From Anaeromyxobacteraceae bacterium (GTDB lineage: Bacteria > Myxococcota > Myxococcia > Myxococcales > Anaeromyxobacteraceae), in assembly GCA_047602405.1 (NCBI GenBank), contig JASGHJ010000001.1, forward strand, positions 1,216,001-1,280,000: DNA of 64,000 bases. Direction: 5' to 3'. Under the pieces are notes generated by a model. That model saw only the letters and a list, made by a program, of their open reading frames with translations, had not been told where the DNA came from and made no database searches. This document shows positions 37,971 through 45,358 of this stretch, piece after piece; the stretch's first letter is position 1, and each line of letters starts with the position of its first letter. The position numbers and the translations under genes are program-made.

Positions 37971-38134
37971 GGCGGGCGTCGGACGAACGGGGTTACGCGG
38001 GGCGGGGCGGCCGTATTTCGAACCTGATCCGGAGGGAGACGCCAGGCCACGGTTCGTGACGGCGCGGCGCGGCATCGGTGTATCGCCGGCCGCGGCGCCC
38101 CGCGCAAGTTCGCCGCCGCGGGGGAGCGCCCAGG

Positions 38135-38668
38135 TCAGCTCGGCCCGCGGCGAGGCCAGAGCACCCTCGCTCCGAGGGCCAGCACCGTGGCCGGCAGCCA
38201 GATCCAGAGCGCCTCGGACCGGAGCACGGCGAGCCCGCGCTCGGAGAGGAACCGCCCGAGCCCGATGGGCGAGACCTCGATCACCCGCCAGGGCGCGAAG
38301 AACCGCTCCCCGGAAAGGGGCCAGAGGAGGGCGACGCCGAGGCCGCCATTCGTGATCGCGTCGAGGAGCGGGTGCGAGAGCGTCGCGAGGCCGACGAGCA
38401 GGAACGCGCGGAGGCGGGTGGTGCGGAGCGCCGGCGCCGCCGCGGCGGCGAGCGCGCCCACGAGGAGCGCGAACGCGATCGAGTGGCTCGCGCCGCGATG
38501 GCCGAGGGCGTCGCCGTACGGGATGCCGGCCTTGAACGCGAGGACGTCGGCGTCGGGGAGCATCGAGCCGAGCACGCCCGCCACGAGGAGCCGCGGCGGG
38601 ACGGCGCGCGTCCCCAGCCCGGCGCCGGCCGCGAGCGGGATGGCGGCGTGGGAGAGGATCGTCGGCAC
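38135..38668 (-). CDS. YbcI/DUF457-like membrane metal-dependent hydrolase
   Basis: PDADV, HRGASHS, SHPLLDAITNGG.GV, IEVSPIG. Confidence 0.88.
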   Translation of the reverse strand: MPTILSHAAIPLAAGAGLGTRAVPPRLLVAGVLGSMLPDADVLAFKAGIPYGDALGHRGASHSIAFALLVGALAAAAAPALRTTRLRAFLLVGLATLSHPLLDAITNGGLGVALLWPLSGERFFAPWRVIEVSPIGLGRFLSERGLAVLRSEALWIWLPATVLALGARVLWPRRGPS

Positions 38669-38669
38669 G

Positions 38670-39335
38670 CTACTCCACGAACCCGACCACGAGGTTCATC
38701 GCGAGGGCGATGATCGCGGTGGTGAAGGCGAACGACTGGGCGGCGTGGAACAGCACCGCCCGCCGGAGCTGGCGGCTCGAGATCGCGACGTCGGAGGTCT
38801 GGAAGCACATGCCGATGGTGAAGGCGAAGTAGGCGAAGTCGAGCTGGTCGGGGGGCTCGTTCCCCGGGAAGGCGAGCCCGCCCGGGCCCTCGTCGTCGTC
38901 GCGGTAGAAGAGGTGCGCGTACCGGAGCGCCCACGAGGTGTGGGTGAGGAGCCAGGAGGCGACGACCGCGACGAGGCAGAGCGCGACCCAGAGGGCCGCG
39001 TGCTCCGGGGCGAGGTGGCGGGCGCGGCGCAACACGAGCACCGCGGAGAAGAGGCTCGCCGTGCTCGCCAGGATGGAGACCACCCACACCATGCGGCGTC
39101 CGGGGTCCTCGCCCGCCGCGCGCCGGCGCGTCTGCGCCGCGTCCTCGCGCCAGATGACGGTCCACGCGAGCGTGAGCAGCACGAGCGCGAAGACGTCCCA
39201 CGCCGCCACCGCGCGGAGCGCGAGCCCCTCCCCGCGCACGGTGAGGGCCGTCACGAGGGCCGCGGCGGCCGACACCGCGAGCCGCACGATGGCGCGGCGG
39301 GGAGACCAGCGGGCGGCGGTACGGAGGGTGCTCAC
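38670..39335 (-). CDS. DUF1345 membrane protein
   Basis: ALRYAHLFY, GL.FPG, DFAYFAFTIGMCFQTSDV. Confidence 0.9.
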   Translation of the reverse strand: MSTLRTAARWSPRRAIVRLAVSAAAALVTALTVRGEGLALRAVAAWDVFALVLLTLAWTVIWREDAAQTRRRAAGEDPGRRMVWVVSILASTASLFSAVLVLRRARHLAPEHAALWVALCLVAVVASWLLTHTSWALRYAHLFYRDDDEGPGGLAFPGNEPPDQLDFAYFAFTIGMCFQTSDVAISSRQLRRAVLFHAAQSFAFTTAIIALAMNLVVGFVE

Positions 39336-39454
39336 GGGTGGGGGATTGTAGCCCGTACGTTCCGTCGCTCCAGCCTTCGTCCCCGCGCCAGGCCGTCCGG
39401 TGGTATCCGTGGGGGGCCTTCATTCCAACCTCGACCCTCCGGAGACCGCCCGCC

Positions 39455-39955
39455 ATGCCGACCACCCAGGAGAACCTCGCCACCGCGTTCGCCGGCGAGA
39501 GCCAGGCGAACCGCAAGTACCTCGCCTTCGCGCGCCAGGCCGAGAAGGAGAACCTCCCGCAGATCGCGAAGGTCTTCCGCGCGGCGGCCGAGGCCGAGAC
39601 GATCCACGCGCTCTCGCACCTCGCGAACATGGGCGGCGTGAAGTCGACGCTCGAGAACCTCGAGGCCGCGGTCGCCGGCGAGACCTACGAGTCGAAGGAG
39701 ATGTACCCGCCGATGGCCGCGCAGGCGAAGGCCGAGGGCCACCGCGCGAAGACGATGCTCGAGTGGGCCGGCAAGGCCGAGGCGGTCCACGCGGAGCTGT
39801 TCCAGCAGGCCCTCGCGGCGCTCAAGTCCGGCGCCGACCTCTCGCAGATGGACGTCTACCTCTGCCCGGCCTGCGGCCACCTCGAGTTCGGCAAGCCCCC
39901 CGAGCGCTGCCCGATCTGCAATGCGCCCGCGGCGAAGTTCGTGAAGGTCGCGTAG
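39455..39955 (+). CDS. Rubrerythrin
   Basis: AFAGESQANRKY, EAETIH, GETYE..MYP, EAVH, CPAC...CPIC. Confidence 0.93.
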   Translation: MPTTQENLATAFAGESQANRKYLAFARQAEKENLPQIAKVFRAAAEAETIHALSHLANMGGVKSTLENLEAAVAGETYESKEMYPPMAAQAKAEGHRAKTMLEWAGKAEAVHAELFQQALAALKSGADLSQMDVYLCPACGHLEFGKPPERCPICNAPAAKFVKVA

Positions 39956-39980
39956 GGCCGCGCCGCGCGGCAGGCGGACC

Positions 39981-40442
39981 TCAGGCGTCCGGATCGCCCT
40001 CGAAGTAGTCCGCCTGCTTCGCCTTCTCGAAGATCCACCGCTTCCCGGTCGGCTGCGCCCCGAGCACGAACGCGATCTTGCCGGAGTCGGGGTACTCGAC
40101 CACGTCGTGCCCGAAGGCGGCGGAGAGCCCGAGGTACCGGAACGGCTCCCTGCCCTCGTTGACGAGCTGGTGCGCCGGCCCGCCGGGCGGGAACGACACG
40201 TAGTCGCCGGGGCCGACCTCCGTCGTCGCCTCGGGCGTGCGCACCAGCGCCTTGCCGGAGAGCACGTAGAGCGCCTCCTCGGTGACCTGGTGCGCGTGGA
40301 GCGGGAACGACTTCTTGCCCGGCGCGAGCTCCCAGAGCCCGGCCCTGAGCTTCTCGCCGCCGAGCTCCATCCGACGCTGCGAGTACTTCCCGCGCTGCAG
40401 CGAGTCGGCCCAGTTGCCGGTGCCGGACTTGACGATCTTCAT
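39981..40442 (-). CDS. Cupin domain protein
   Basis: PLHAH..EEALYVLSG, GD...FP.G..AHQLVN, YPDSGK. Confidence 0.88.
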   Translation of the reverse strand: MKIVKSGTGNWADSLQRGKYSQRRMELGGEKLRAGLWELAPGKKSFPLHAHQVTEEALYVLSGKALVRTPEATTEVGPGDYVSFPPGGPAHQLVNEGREPFRYLGLSAAFGHDVVEYPDSGKIAFVLGAQPTGKRWIFEKAKQADYFEGDPDA

Positions 40443-40463
40443 GGTGTCTCCTCGAAGGCGTGA

Positions 40464-40500
40464 CGCCCCTCGTCTCCGCCCGCCTGCGGCGGGCTACGCT
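40464..40500 (-). repeat. 3' part of the REP-like element split by the IS110 insertion
   Basis: Minus strand AG|CGTAG-CCCGCC-GCA-GGCGGG-CGGAGACGAGGGGCG; the 5' part lies at 42055-42068. Confidence 0.85.
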
Positions 40501-40517
40501 GCTTCGAAATGCCGGGG

Positions 40518-41772
40518 TTAGGAGGTGACCGCCTCGGGTGTCTGTGAGGTGACGGTCACGCTATAGCCGAGGCGCTCAAGGCGGCGAACGAGGTTCTTGG
40601 CGACGCGCTTTTCGTCGACCCGGTCGAGGTAGGTGTCCCCGAGGTCCTCGTACGGTACGTGTTTCGTGAGGAATCTCATAGGCGGCGTTGAGGATCTTGT
40701 GGGCGATGGCGAAGGTGGCTCGCTTGTGTCCTCGGCGGGCCTTGAGGCGGAAGTACTTGTCTCGCAGGTAGGTCTTCTTGGTGCGGATGGCTGCGCCGGC
40801 AGCCTCGACCAGGGTCGACCGGAGGTGAACGTTCCCCTTCCGCGAACGCCCGGAGCGCCGCTTCCCGGCCGATTCGTCGTTCCCGGGGCAGACGCCAGCC
40901 CAACTCGCCAGGTGGCGCGGGCCGCCGAAGACGGACATGTCGGGGCCGATCTCAGCGAGAAGTGACGCGCTGGTCTGGACCTTCACGCCCGGAATCGTCG
41001 AAAGCAGCTTGACCTGCTCGCGATAGGGCTCGAGTCGGCGCTCGATCTCCCTCTCTAGCGTGTCGACGTCGCGGTCAGCAGCGTCGAGCCGGTCGAGCTG
41101 TAGCCGCAACATGTACCGGTGGTGGTCGCGGAGCCGGCCGTCGAGGGCGGCCTCGAGCTCGGGGATCTTCTTACGTAGGAGCCCTTCGGCGAGCTTCGCG
41201 AGGTTGCGCGGGTCGGATTCGCCATCGGCCATCGCTCGCAGCATCGCCATGCCAGACTTGCCAAAGACATCCGAGGCAACGCTTGCGAGCTTCACGTTCG
41301 CGGTCTCGAGGACCTTCTGTAGTCGATTGCGCTCGGACGTCCGGGCCTGGACGACCGAGCGTCGGTACCGAACGAGGTCCCGTAGGTCGCGAAGGTAGAG
41401 CGGCGGCACGTAGCTCTTGCGGATCAGCCCCATCCTCACGAGTCGGGCAATCCACTCCGAGTCCTTCACGTCCGTCTTGCGGCCTGGGACGTTCTTCATG
41501 TGCTGCGCGTTGCCAACGACGAGCTCGAGCTCGCCCGCCGACTCCAGCACCGCGTAAACGGGCTTCCAGTAGACGCCCGTGCTCTCCATGGCCACGTGCG
41601 TGACGTGCTCCTCGCGCAGCCACTCCACGAGCGCCAGCAAGTCGCGCGTGAACGTCGAGAACTCCCTCACGCACTTGCGCAGCCTGGAGCCCTCTCCCAG
41701 CAGCACGCAGGCCGTCACTTGCTCCTTGTGAACGTCGAGTCCACAGACCCGATCGACAACGATTCCTTCCAT
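40518..41772 (-). CDS. IS110 family recombinase/transposase, +1 frameshift near 40672
   Basis: DEDD motifs GLDVHK, MESTGVYWKP, KTDVKD; LSTIPGV, SWAGVCPGNDESAGK. The corrected frame ends ...LERLGYSVTVTSQTPEAVTS* (about 417 aa). Confidence 0.93.
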
Positions 41773-41788
41773 GACCACCTCCGGGGAA

Positions 41789-41966
41789 GGAGGCGGTCGC
41801 TGCGCCGCGGGGTAGCTTCTAGGACACTGCTTCACGCCCTTCCCAGGCATGCATCTGCCCAGGTACGGCACACCGTGGTACCCATTCGCAGCGCGGGCCG
41901 GTCTCGGGGACGGGGTTCCTGGCAGGACCGCCGAACGTAGCAACGGCCTTCTGAGCGACCACCTCC
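41789..41966 (-). ncRNA. Putative IS110 bridge RNA (target-binding loop 41896-41948; donor-binding loop about 41821-41883)
   Basis: A 13-bp closing stem encloses two stem-internal loop-stem modules; loop sequences match target (GCTACG, CCCCGAG) and donor (GAAGCAG). Folded by eye; boundaries approximate. Confidence 0.75.
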
Positions 41967-42054
41967 GAGGTCGATCGCTACACCGGGACCGCCCGCGCGC
42001 TCAACCAACGGCAGGCATTTCATGCCCCCCGGTGGACGTGTCCGTCCATGAGGT

Positions 42055-42068
42055 CTCGGGGCGAACGG
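42055..42068 (-). repeat. 5' part of the REP-like element split by the IS110 insertion
   Basis: Minus strand CCGTTCGCCCCG-AG. Confidence 0.8.
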
Positions 42069-42161
42069 ACACCTGGATCGTAAAGGCCGCAGGTTCGTCC
42101 CCACACGACCTCACGGGGTCCCCCGTCCGCCGTCCGAGCCTGCCGGTAGACTGCCCGTGCA

Positions 42162-43958
42162 ATGGCCACGAAGAAGCGGTCCCTCATCGCGCCGCCCGGC
42201 GGCCCGGCCTCCGGCCCGCAGGCGCGCCTCGCGCAGATGCGGATCGTCGCGCAGGACCCGTCGGTGCGCGGGAGGCACGGCGAGATCCTCACGGCCGTGG
42301 TCGACGTGCCGGCGGAGACGCTCGCCGCCGGACCGCGCGGCTACCGCGTCCACGTCATCGACTACGACGCCTCCACCGGCCGGCTCTACCCGCCGGTCGC
42401 CTATGACCGCGAGGCCGGAGGCTGGCGCGCCGATCCCGCCGCCGAGGTGACCGAGGAGGTCGTCCTCCGCGACACGGGCTTCCACGCCCAGAACGTCTAC
42501 GCGATCGTGATGCGGACGCTCGCGCGCTTCGAGTTCGCGCTCGGGCGGCGCATCGGCTGGGGCTTCGACGTCACCGGCCACCAGATCAAGGTGGCCCCCC
42601 ACGCGTTCGCGGACGCGAACGCCTTCTACTCGCGCCGCGACGAGGCGCTCCTCTTCGGCCACTTCCCCACGCGCGACGGGAAGGGCCACGTCTTCAGCTG
42701 CCTCTCCCACGACATCGTCGCCCACGAGACGAGCCACGCCGTGCTCGACGGGCTCCGCAAGCGCTTCATGGACCCGTCCTCGCCGGACCAGGCCGCGTTC
42801 CACGAGGGGTTCGCCGACGTGGTCGCGCTGCTCTCGGTCTTCGCCGTGAAGGAGGTCGTGCGCGTGCTCGTCGACGTGCCCGCCGGCGGGCGGGCCGACG
42901 CGCGCGGGCCGCTGCGCGACGTCTCGGTCGCGGCCCTGCGCCGCTCGGCGCTGTTCGCGCTCGGCAAGCAGTTCGGCCGGGAGATGGGCGCCATCGGCCG
43001 CAGCGCCCTCAGGGCCTCGGCGGACCTCGTCGCGCGGCCCGGGCTGGCGCGGCTGCCCGAGTTCGACGAGCCGCACCGGCGCGGGGAGATCCTCGTGGCC
43101 GCGATCCTGCACGCCTTCCTCGCGGTCTGGTCGCACCGGCTCACCGCCCTCCGCAGGCACGGCCCCGTCGATCGCGACCGCGCGGCCGAGGAGGGCTCGG
43201 ACATCGCCGACGACCTCCTCACCGTCGCCATCCGCGCGCTCGACTACTGCCCGCCGGTCCACCTGCGCTTCGGCCACTTCCTCTCCGCGATGGTCACGGC
43301 CGACCGCGAGGTCCGGCCGCGCGACGCGCGCTACGGCGTGCGCGACGCGCTCGTCGCGGCCTTCGAGGCGTTCGGCATCGGGCACGAGTCGGTGGGCCGC
43401 AGGGGCGAGGCCCGCGTCGACCCGGGCTGGCAGCAGGCCACGAAGCGGTTCGACTACGACCGCACCCGCTTCGAGTCGATGCAGCGCGATCCGGACGAGG
43501 TCTTCCGCTTCGTCTGGGAGAACCGGAGGGAGCTCCGGCTCTTCTCCGGCGCCTACACGCGGGTCCTCTCGGTGCGGCCCTGCGTGCGCGTCGCCCCGGA
43601 GGATGGCTTCACGCTCAGGGAGACGGTGGCCGAGGTCTTCCAGCAGCTCTCGATGCTCGCCGGCGAGCTCGGGGCGCACGGCATCGAGAAGCCCGAGGGC
43701 ATGCCGGACGACACGGCCATCATGCTGCTCGGCGGCGTGACGCTGGTCTTCGACGAGTACGGCCACGTGAAGTACACGATCGGCGACTCGGTCCACGACC
43801 CGTCGCGCCCCAACGTGCAGGCGCGGCAGAGCGAGCGCCTGAAGAGCCTCTGGGACCACGGCTTCTTCCGGAGGACCGCGGCGGCGGAGCGGCGCTTCTC
43901 GGCGGTCCACCGGGCGCGCAGCCTCGACCCGGTCACGCAGGCGAAGGAGGCGTGGTGA
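42162..43958 (+). CDS. Gluzincin (M4/M36-like) metallopeptidase, no signal peptide
   Basis: NAFYS, DIVAHETSH (HExxH), AFHEGFAD third-ligand motif. Confidence 0.8.
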   Translation: MATKKRSLIAPPGGPASGPQARLAQMRIVAQDPSVRGRHGEILTAVVDVPAETLAAGPRGYRVHVIDYDASTGRLYPPVAYDREAGGWRADPAAEVTEEVVLRDTGFHAQNVYAIVMRTLARFEFALGRRIGWGFDVTGHQIKVAPHAFADANAFYSRRDEALLFGHFPTRDGKGHVFSCLSHDIVAHETSHAVLDGLRKRFMDPSSPDQAAFHEGFADVVALLSVFAVKEVVRVLVDVPAGGRADARGPLRDVSVAALRRSALFALGKQFGREMGAIGRSALRASADLVARPGLARLPEFDEPHRRGEILVAAILHAFLAVWSHRLTALRRHGPVDRDRAAEEGSDIADDLLTVAIRALDYCPPVHLRFGHFLSAMVTADREVRPRDARYGVRDALVAAFEAFGIGHESVGRRGEARVDPGWQQATKRFDYDRTRFESMQRDPDEVFRFVWENRRELRLFSGAYTRVLSVRPCVRVAPEDGFTLRETVAEVFQQLSMLAGELGAHGIEKPEGMPDDTAIMLLGGVTLVFDEYGHVKYTIGDSVHDPSRPNVQARQSERLKSLWDHGFFRRTAAAERRFSAVHRARSLDPVTQAKEAW

Positions 43959-45358
43959 TGGCGCCCGCCCTGAAGGCCGCGCGGCTGTTCACGTACCGGG
44001 TCGGCTTCGGCGACTGCTTCCTGCTCCGGCTCGAGTACGAGGACCGGCCGCGGCACGTGCTCGTCGACTTCGGCACGACCTCCGCCGCGATCGACCCCGC
44101 GGGCCCGTCCCTCGAGGACGTCGCGAAGGAGATCGCGGCCGACTGCCAGCGACCGGGAGGTCGCTCGGGAACCCAGGGCGGGACGCTCGACGCCATCGTC
44201 GCGACGCACCGGCACCGGGATCACGTCTCCGGCTTCGCGGGTGCGTCGTGGAAGATCCTGAAGGCCTTGAAACCCGGCCTCGCCGTCATGCCCTGGACCG
44301 AGGCGCCGGACGCGCCGGTCGACGGCGGGGTCGTCCCGACCGGCACCCGGCTCGCGATCGGCGAGGCCTCCGTCGCCCACGCGCGGACGCTCCAGGCGAT
44401 CCACCGGGTCGCGGCCGCCGCCGTGAAGGAGCTCGAGCGCCGCGACGGGGAGGACGCGCGCGACGGCGGGACGGAGGAGCCCGACGAGGACGCCGCGTCC
44501 GCCTGGGACGCTGCGGACCTCGGCCCGCCGTCGGTGAACGCGCCCTTCCCGAAGCGGCTCGCCGCGCAGCTGCGCTTCGTCGGGCTCGACAACCTGCAGA
44601 ACCCGGAGGCGATGGCGAACCTGCGCGGCCTCCCGCGGGTCGACTACGTCTGCTACGGATCGAAGACGCGGCTCGAGGACGTGCTCCCCGGCGTGAAGGT
44701 CCGCGTGCTCGGGCCGCCCACGCTCGCGCAGTCGGACGCCATCCGCAGGCAGCGCACCGTCGACCGCGACGAGTTCTGGCACGTCATGGCCGCCGCCGGC
44801 GAGCAGGTCGTGCGCCCCGGCGGCCCGGACCTCTTCCCCGGCGTGAAGACCGTCGGCCCGAGCGCGCTGCCGCTCGAGACCCGCTGGTTCCTGAGGCGGC
44901 TCGACGCGCTCCGCGCCGAGGAGCTGTTCGGCATCGTCCGCGCGCTCGACGACGTGCTCAACAACACGAGCGTGATCCTGCTCCTCGAGCTGCCGGTGAA
45001 GGGCGGGAAGCCGCGGCGGGTGCTGCTCCCCGGCGACGCGCAGCTCGAGAACTGGAGCTACGCGCTCGGGCGGCCGGGCGTGAAGGAGGCGCTCGCGGGC
45101 GTCGACGTCCTCAAGGTCGGCCACCACGGCAGCCTCAACGCCACGCCGAAGACGCTCTGGAACCTGCTCGAGAAGCGCGGCGGGCCCGGGAAGCGCGGCC
45201 GGCTGCGCACCGTGCTCTCGACGCGGAAGGGGAAGCACGGCTCGGCGCAGCGGGGCACCGAGGTGCCGCGCAAGCCGCTGCTCGAGGCGCTCCAGAAGGA
45301 CTCGGAGCTGACCTCGACGATGAAGGGCAAGGCGGTGCCGCCGATCGAGCTCCTGTAG
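43958..45358 (+). CDS. ComEC/Rec2-like MBL-fold metallo-hydrolase
   Basis: VGFGDCFLL, VDFG, THRHRDH, NNTS, LLPGDA, LKVGHHGS; TGATG overlap with AAGGAGG RBS. Confidence 0.85.
   Translation: MAPALKAARLFTYRVGFGDCFLLRLEYEDRPRHVLVDFGTTSAAIDPAGPSLEDVAKEIAADCQRPGGRSGTQGGTLDAIVATHRHRDHVSGFAGASWKILKALKPGLAVMPWTEAPDAPVDGGVVPTGTRLAIGEASVAHARTLQAIHRVAAAAVKELERRDGEDARDGGTEEPDEDAASAWDAADLGPPSVNAPFPKRLAAQLRFVGLDNLQNPEAMANLRGLPRVDYVCYGSKTRLEDVLPGVKVRVLGPPTLAQSDAIRRQRTVDRDEFWHVMAAAGEQVVRPGGPDLFPGVKTVGPSALPLETRWFLRRLDALRAEELFGIVRALDDVLNNTSVILLLELPVKGGKPRRVLLPGDAQLENWSYALGRPGVKEALAGVDVLKVGHHGSLNATPKTLWNLLEKRGGPGKRGRLRTVLSTRKGKHGSAQRGTEVPRKPLLEALQKDSELTSTMKGKAVPPIELL

Follow-up and report, generated by a model that had tools for sequence, protein, structure and literature searches.

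Competing folds in the bridge RNA leader of a REP-targeting IS110 element and their possible role as a guard against read-through transcription

How can one IS110 transcript serve both as guide RNA and as recombinase message, and what becomes of transcripts that enter the element from the host? The question is raised by a locus in an Anaeromyxobacteraceae genome, analysed within a window of 64,000 nucleotides (the whole stretch of DNA examined; all positions refer to it). An initial annotation had proposed a conformational switch by which the recombinase is translated only from transcripts containing the complete guide region. We find that the pairings behind this proposal are a real, partly conserved feature of a bona fide IS110 bridge RNA leader, with a functional role that is predicted computationally. 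Coordinates of all features are summarized in Table 1.

Related leaders were compared in three samples. The main set comprised 36 leaders picked by eye as resembling the one studied; L119 (insertion) and L111 (truncated) were removed, and the remaining 34 fall into 21 clusters. A sister set held 74 of the other 81 leaders with enough flank, seven having been removed (duplicate, unrelated, broken, or uncertain start). A partial hold-out consisted of 18 later-fetched loci (9 of 26 plasmid hits were fetched; repeats of earlier loci were excluded). Host-gene comparisons used 800 genes, crudely called from long open frames with a Shine-Dalgarno sequence. Because the clusters are related by descent, p-values computed over them overstate significance.

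Table 1. Features of the element and its flanks, listed along the minus strand, with the basis of each assignment where given.
Feature	Position	Strand	Basis or remark
Left target part, in REP-like palindrome family	42057..42068	-	Flank common to four copies
AG core, left junction	42055..42056	-	Four-copy alignment and empty sites
Left non-coding end, 282 nt	41773..42054	-	Identical in four of four copies
Left subterminal inverted repeat (8 bp)	42014..42021	-	Matches 40506-40513
Predicted -35 box TTGAGC	41999..42004	-	Above shuffles in 10/12 clusters; weak here
Strand U (anti-bridge strand), in predicted promoter spacer	41987..41998	-	Pairs with V
Predicted -10 box TAGCGA (41980-41975)	within 41974..41980	-	
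Strand W (RNA of the -10 region)	41974..41980	-	Predicted to pair with 41944-41938, enclosing strand A
Strand A: 5' word copy and 5' arm of basal stem	41954..41967	-	Predicted start 41969-41966
Target-binding loop	41896..41948	-	Stem 41948-41944 with 41900-41896; consensus fold, guide covariation
Right-target guide (complement)	41940-41934	-	Guide covariation
Left-target guide and core	41911-41903	-	Guide covariation
Strand V: junction of target-loop 3' stem and donor-arm basal stem	41891..41903	-	Alternative partner of U
Donor-binding arm	41802..41894	-	3' guide 41833-41827 matches right end and core; consensus fold
Strand B: switch strand	41789..41801	-	Alternative partners A (13 bp) and C (10 bp)
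Strand C: second word copy	41773..41783	-	Shine-Dalgarno GGAGG at 41782-41778
IS110 recombinase	40576..41772	-	398 aa as encoded; DEDD and SG motifs
Right end, short	40499..40520	-	Inverted repeat 40513-40506, AG core 40500-40499
Right REP-like target part (CGTAG and hairpin)	40464..40498	-	End approximate

The element, its target and its guides

The recombinase belongs to the IS110 family, matching PF01548 (E 1e-32) and PF02371 (E 8e-23) in Pfam and NF033542 at 294.7 bits (cut-off 140); both the DEDD RuvC-like domain and the Transposase_20 domain with its SG motif were located. The element is present in four near-identical copies in this genome, which differ by point changes and occupy four separate sites. 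All four have a frame shift near 40673 (40672-40674, minus strand), where the conserved C-terminal tail of the family is replaced by about 30 Arg-rich residues; in intact relatives the recombinase runs on in the other frame to about 410 aa. Either the shortened recombinase still works, or the copies were moved in trans. No relative was confirmed in viral contigs.

Insertion is site-specific, with the AG core and REP-like flanks found in four of four copies and 138 empty target sites (at most one mismatch) elsewhere in the genome; the element is a REP-targeting IS110. The palindrome family with these 138 sites includes tandem arrays spaced at about 82 nt. Within the left end, a variable hairpin (42047-42034, and its counterparts in relatives) sits between the core and the subterminal repeat, which gives the donor a marked asymmetry (about 33 versus 5 nt). 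Judged by eye, the subterminal repeat motif of relatives changes in step with their right ends. A conserved GAAA motif upstream of U, considered as a T-loop, was rejected on this ground: it mirrors the right end as subterminal repeat.

The circle junction of the element is absent from the assembly. In L104, L116, L192 and L097, left-end-like sequence directly follows the right end, which suggests tandem copies or assembled circle junctions. Adjoining the element ends, the right flanks of L018, L019, L107, L115 and L125 and the left flank of L019 carry short tandem repeats (8-22 nt) with a terminal core-like dinucleotide, which may have been left behind by successive rounds of insertion and excision. 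The genome analysed also contains four copies of another IS110-family element (L005-L008), unrelated to the one studied; it is preceded by short tandem repeats and followed by a long non-coding region. Next to the element studied, a 598-aa open frame (42162-43958, plus strand) has no Pfam match and looks metallopeptidase-like by eye; beside it lies a metallo-hydrolase-like frame (43952-45358).

By sequence comparison, the left end of the element is a bridge RNA fused to the recombinase message. No Rfam match was found up to E 1 across 38000-45000, and folding of the whole leader was uninformative (z-score -0.81); the consensus fold of the 34 leaders comprises a target loop and a donor arm, with 27 pairs of which 15 show double changes. 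Three of the four guides track their target or donor. The donor 3' guide matches the right end at 6.6 of 7 positions (4.2 when permuted) and 3.0 of 5 positions agree between the right-target (5') guide and the right flank (1.7 permuted), both over the 25 of 34 relatives with a located right end; the left-target (3') guide matches the left flank at 7.0 of 9 (5.7 permuted; 32 of 34 relatives). No permutation reached these values. The fourth guide (donor 5', about 41879-41871) gave no excess over permutations in three registers (p 0.11-0.75), with left-end starts only roughly located, and this second donor guide has no match beside the core.

The guides are ordered with the top-strand complement first (right-target guide at 41940 before left-target guide at 41911), an order reported for IS1111-type RNAs (PMC11187229). 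The element has this order despite an upstream non-coding end and a protein of IS110 length. Assignment to the IS1111 group by the ends, defined by subterminal repeats of 11-13 bp near both ends and a downstream non-coding region (PMC11187229), was rejected, as the 8-bp repeat lies about 33 nt inside the left end and the long non-coding end is upstream.

Two exclusive stems and a third strand

On the minus strand the word CGGAGGTGGTC occurs at 41967-41957 and again at 41783-41773, directly before the ATG at 41772, and AGCGACCGCCTCC (41801-41789) pairs with either copy, as the initial annotation had stated. The long-range stem A:B has 13 pairs, one of them G-U; the hairpin B:C has 10 pairs, also with one G-U, and a 6-nt loop. 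Having 10 nucleotides in common, the two stems are mutually exclusive, and their energies are nearly equal. To gauge chance, 5000 random 282-nt windows of the genome were drawn; in 24 of them the final 11-mer had another copy in the 271 nt before it.

Comparison identifies A:B as the conserved basal stem of the bridge RNA. In 20 of 21 clusters strand A pairs better with its own partner than with those of other lineages, and 55 double-change cells were counted, as high as in none of 500 shuffles; a one-column slide scores nearly as well, the alignment being loose there. For the hairpin B:C, 15 of 21 clusters lie above the chimeras (p 0.023) and above the shuffles (p 0.0009); roughly one in three of the 34 relatives has a weak hairpin or none. 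In this copy the hairpin's cost of opening the ribosome site is 19.8 kcal/mol, a value reached by 1.3% of the 800 host genes.

The duplicated word itself is kept in part of the relatives, with different words in different lineages. Cognate A and C strands have a common word of 5.7 nt on average against 4.5 nt when permuted (none of 2000 permutations as high), and words of at least 7 nt occur in 14 of 34 relatives compared to 6.7% of 1072 non-cognate pairs; in L108 and L113 the word reaches across the start codon. None of the 74 sister leaders shares a 7-nt word, and their hairpins exceed shuffles in only 9 cases. In the hold-out, B:C was above shuffles in 10 of 18 loci, which is no excess. The Shine-Dalgarno hairpin is thus, on this comparison, lineage-limited within the family. 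In some sister leaders (e.g. L158, L042 and L171) strand B folds on itself instead of pairing with the Shine-Dalgarno sequence; in leaders of these types the ribosome site is predicted to be more open than in shuffles, with a different alternative fold.

The initial annotation missed a further strand, U, whose sequence is complementary to the junction of the two guide loops (V). Since U:V crosses A:B, the two cannot coexist in a nested fold. Pairing of U with V exceeds the shuffled controls in 17 of 19 clusters. Taken singly, 17 of 32 leaders reach significance and the other 15 do not; in L105 and L125 the U region is deleted. In the alignment, 78.5% of U:V cells are paired, compared to 25-43% in slid controls, and 25 cells at 5 of 11 pairs show double changes (0 of 500 shuffles). 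In folding models U is predicted to dismantle the bridge fold. Shuffling U restored A:B in 15 of 19 clusters; the opening cost of the ribosome site was not significantly lower (11 of 19 clusters, p 0.18).

In a rival reading, A:B is the only functional stem, and the hairpin, the word duplication and U:V result from G+C richness or shared ancestry, or act as a simple damper of expression. Such a reading would fit the persistence of A:B in 73 of 74 sister leaders, the small number of hairpins that rank in the top 10% of host genes (9 of 34) and the ability of the pyrimidine-rich strand B to pair with any Shine-Dalgarno sequence. However, the chimera and permutation nulls retain the Shine-Dalgarno sequence and are still exceeded, the words differ between lineages, compensatory changes in U:V occur at 5 of 11 pairs, and L175 and L178, the later-fetched relatives with a clear U, both have strong hairpins. 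We regard this explanation as quite unlikely.

Transcript start and predicted folding state

A sigma70-type promoter appears to straddle U and to start transcription at A. Boxes resembling -35 and -10 elements lie on either side of U, 16-18 nt from one another and conserved in position; together they score above shuffles in 12 of 13 clusters; singly, the -35 box does so in 10 of 12 clusters and the -10 box in 11 of 12. It is important to note that the promoter windows were set after the pattern had been seen and that the matrices were approximations of E. coli type. The reverse-strand control was not free of signal (9 of 13 clusters, p 0.055), an unanchored scan gave a weaker signal (6 of 32 at p <=0.1), and a consensus promoter scan returned no sites. 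Of the 18 hold-out loci, 10 have their best -10 box in the window 16-26 nt ahead of the target loop (3.5 expected). The predicted start (41969-41966) is the 5' end of strand A and coincides with the RNA 5' end put forward in the initial annotation; with a start there, U and W would be found only in transcripts begun upstream. A junction promoter was not supported, the best promoter-like score across the predicted junction being 0.4. In the short-left-end relatives L191, L193, L197, L187 and L200 the subterminal repeat apparently doubles as -35 box, and several low-G+C hosts among such relatives have near-consensus -10 boxes.

Folding models of this copy depend on where the transcript begins. 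For starts at 41969-41966, A:B is lower in energy by 0.4-4.4 kcal/mol in 32 of 32 end combinations, and for upstream starts B:C is lower in 23 of 24; for a transcript beginning at 41988, the choice of 3' end decides which of the two states is predicted. With the real host flanks of the four copies attached, the hairpin has a probability of 0.94-1.00 in 12 of 12 cases. When the full left end is grown, U:V forms once V appears (probability 0.79-0.89), after which the path barrier to A:B is 35-40 kcal/mol, compared to 6.5 kcal/mol from the internal start (upper bounds). Full-length and read-through transcripts are predicted to be shut because U traps the guide-loop junction.

Relatives behave similarly where U is present. 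Upon addition of upstream sequence to 24 U-bearing relatives, mean A:B pairs fell from 5.3 to 0.7 and B:C pairs rose from 4.7 to 7.9, a shift seen in 14 of 15 clusters. Values barely changed in 12 relatives that have no clear U (A:B from 6.8 to 5.6, B:C from 3.1 to 2.9). When folded from the predicted start, no more than 13 of the 24 relatives with U (6 of 15 clusters) favour A:B at equilibrium. The sister set was unfit as a control for read-through folding, as single-sequence folding did not recover A:B there.

Transcripts that lack strand A are also predicted to be shut, with a hairpin probability of at least 0.93; leaving out A raises the opening cost in 19 of 21 clusters, and shuffling it does so in 16 of 19. 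This part of the translation gate in the initial annotation is supported. It would suit a mechanism that needs no strands other than A, B and C, the hairpin silencing transcripts that have been truncated or processed at the 5' end and have no intact guide. Such a mechanism does not account for the covariation of U:V or for the predicted closure of full-length transcripts, and there is no known source of the truncated transcripts here; we judge it highly improbable. The idea that a complete guide region suffices for translation is not supported, given that full-length and read-through RNAs contain the guide and are nonetheless predicted shut.

The native transcript could also include U and be shut by default, until the recombinase bound to the guide loops, an antisense RNA or 5' processing flips it into the bridge fold and so frees the ribosome site. 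This copy's proposed promoter scores 3.0, sixth in the leader, and the best promoter-like site, scoring 6.0, lies upstream of U, as a feedback switch would have it. Forcing the bridge core to form switches the leader to A:B (0.84-0.98) and lets the A:B stem form in 25 of 34 relatives instead of 10; in this copy's full left end the hairpin is then gone and the opening cost drops only from 10.9 to 9.9 kcal/mol, since other pairings then cover the ribosome site. An antisense RNA is known to open the leader of the IS110 element ISPpu9 (PMC8450116). Against feedback, the upstream promoter-like site, with the subterminal repeat as its -10 box, is supported in only 1 of 12 clusters, in the full left end the two folds are separated by a computed barrier of about 45 kcal/mol, and no strong promoter-like site was seen antisense to the leader (best score 4.2). 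We consider feedback unlikely as the main explanation, and it can coexist with a guard against read-through.

The reading we find somewhat probable is that the leader is a two-state guard against read-through transcription, silencing guide and enzyme together. Sequence comparison shows the leader to be a bridge RNA closed by the basal stem A:B; it also shows that, in part of the family, B has an alternative partner in the Shine-Dalgarno and start region, and U one in V. With a sigma70-type promoter straddling U and starting at A, U and W would be confined to RNA begun upstream. RNA started by the element is predicted to close A:B before the Shine-Dalgarno copy emerges; read-through RNA would form U:V early and be unable to refold in time, leaving B to take the Shine-Dalgarno copy. 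Translation and guide activity would follow these folds, such that transcripts from the predicted promoter of the element would make guide and enzyme and stray host transcripts from outside neither. That an IS110 lineage senses the start of its transcript in this way, with U relaying through the guide loops to switch off bridge RNA and recombinase together, is a tentative proposition that we hold as close to evenly balanced.

Relation to known systems and implications

In IS10 and IS50, sequence upstream of the element's own start, present only in read-through transcripts, folds to block transposase translation, the upstream strand pairing directly with the initiation region. The present leader resembles them in that upstream-only sequence is predicted, from folding models and covariation, to drive a fold that buries the initiation site. 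It differs in that a relay is predicted (U takes V, A is trapped and B takes the Shine-Dalgarno sequence) and that the guide fold would be destroyed as well. Like the tnpA leader of IS200, it has an anti-Shine-Dalgarno hairpin predicted to repress translation and an alternative fold, which is predicted in IS200 too (PMC4513863); IS200, however, belongs to another family, involves art200 with Hfq and a terminator against impinging transcription, and has no bridge RNA according to the available sections of that paper (PMC4513863).

Within the IS110 family, ISPpu9 of Pseudomonas putida is similar in its REP target, AG core, long bridge-RNA leader, promoter inside the element (predicted here, native there) and structure burying the ribosome site (PMC8450116, PMC12288879), a likeness that concerns target, core, leader and promoter features. 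The ISPpu9 native promoter is active, its long transcript includes the bridge RNA, and its junction brings no promoter gain (PMC12288879). There the leader structure covers the ribosome site, which limits translation, and the antisense RNA Asr9 opens it in trans (PMC8450116); no competing basal stem, word duplication or anti-bridge strand is described in the available sections of these papers. IS621 is similar in its DEDD recombinase (PDB match E 1.4e-16), its left-end RNA with target and donor loops and its two-base core, and differs in that its guide order is not the one seen here, with the top-strand complement first, and in relying on a junction promoter (PMC11208160, PMC13626964), none being evident in the present element. 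Read-through suffices for excision of IS621 (PMC13626964), whereas here it is predicted to be silenced; the use of read-through for IS621 excision means that guards of this kind are not universal.

In the literature covered, the main texts of papers that are mostly open access, no account of rival folds within the leader of a bridge RNA came up; fold predictions in supplementary material on ISPpu9 and on bridge RNAs could affect how new the arrangement is. No such switch appears in the available sections of PMC4265352, PMC5006887 and PMC13604230, nor in those of the preprints 10.64898/2026.10.21.760802, 10.64898/2026.09.15.751765 and 10.64898/2026.08.31.748434. The initial annotation knew of no description of the switch; in that literature this applies to the competing folds, and it does not extend to an IS110 leader that buries its ribosome site, published for ISPpu9 (PMC8450116); silencing of transposases by leader structure is known already. 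Bridge RNA processing is left unresolved in the available sections of PMC11187229.

For engineering of bridge recombinases, the prediction for the family of this element is that additional native sequence at the 5' end misfolds the guide and additional sequence at the 3' end opens the basal stem, so that RNA boundaries would decide activity. If the start-sensing reading is true, the guide RNA doubles as a translational switch, with enzyme made only from the fold that makes a working guide. A fold switch set by the start site, if true, would offer a testable answer to how one IS110 transcript serves as both guide and recombinase message, and would also explain how elements in transcribed REP repeats escape activation by host transcription.
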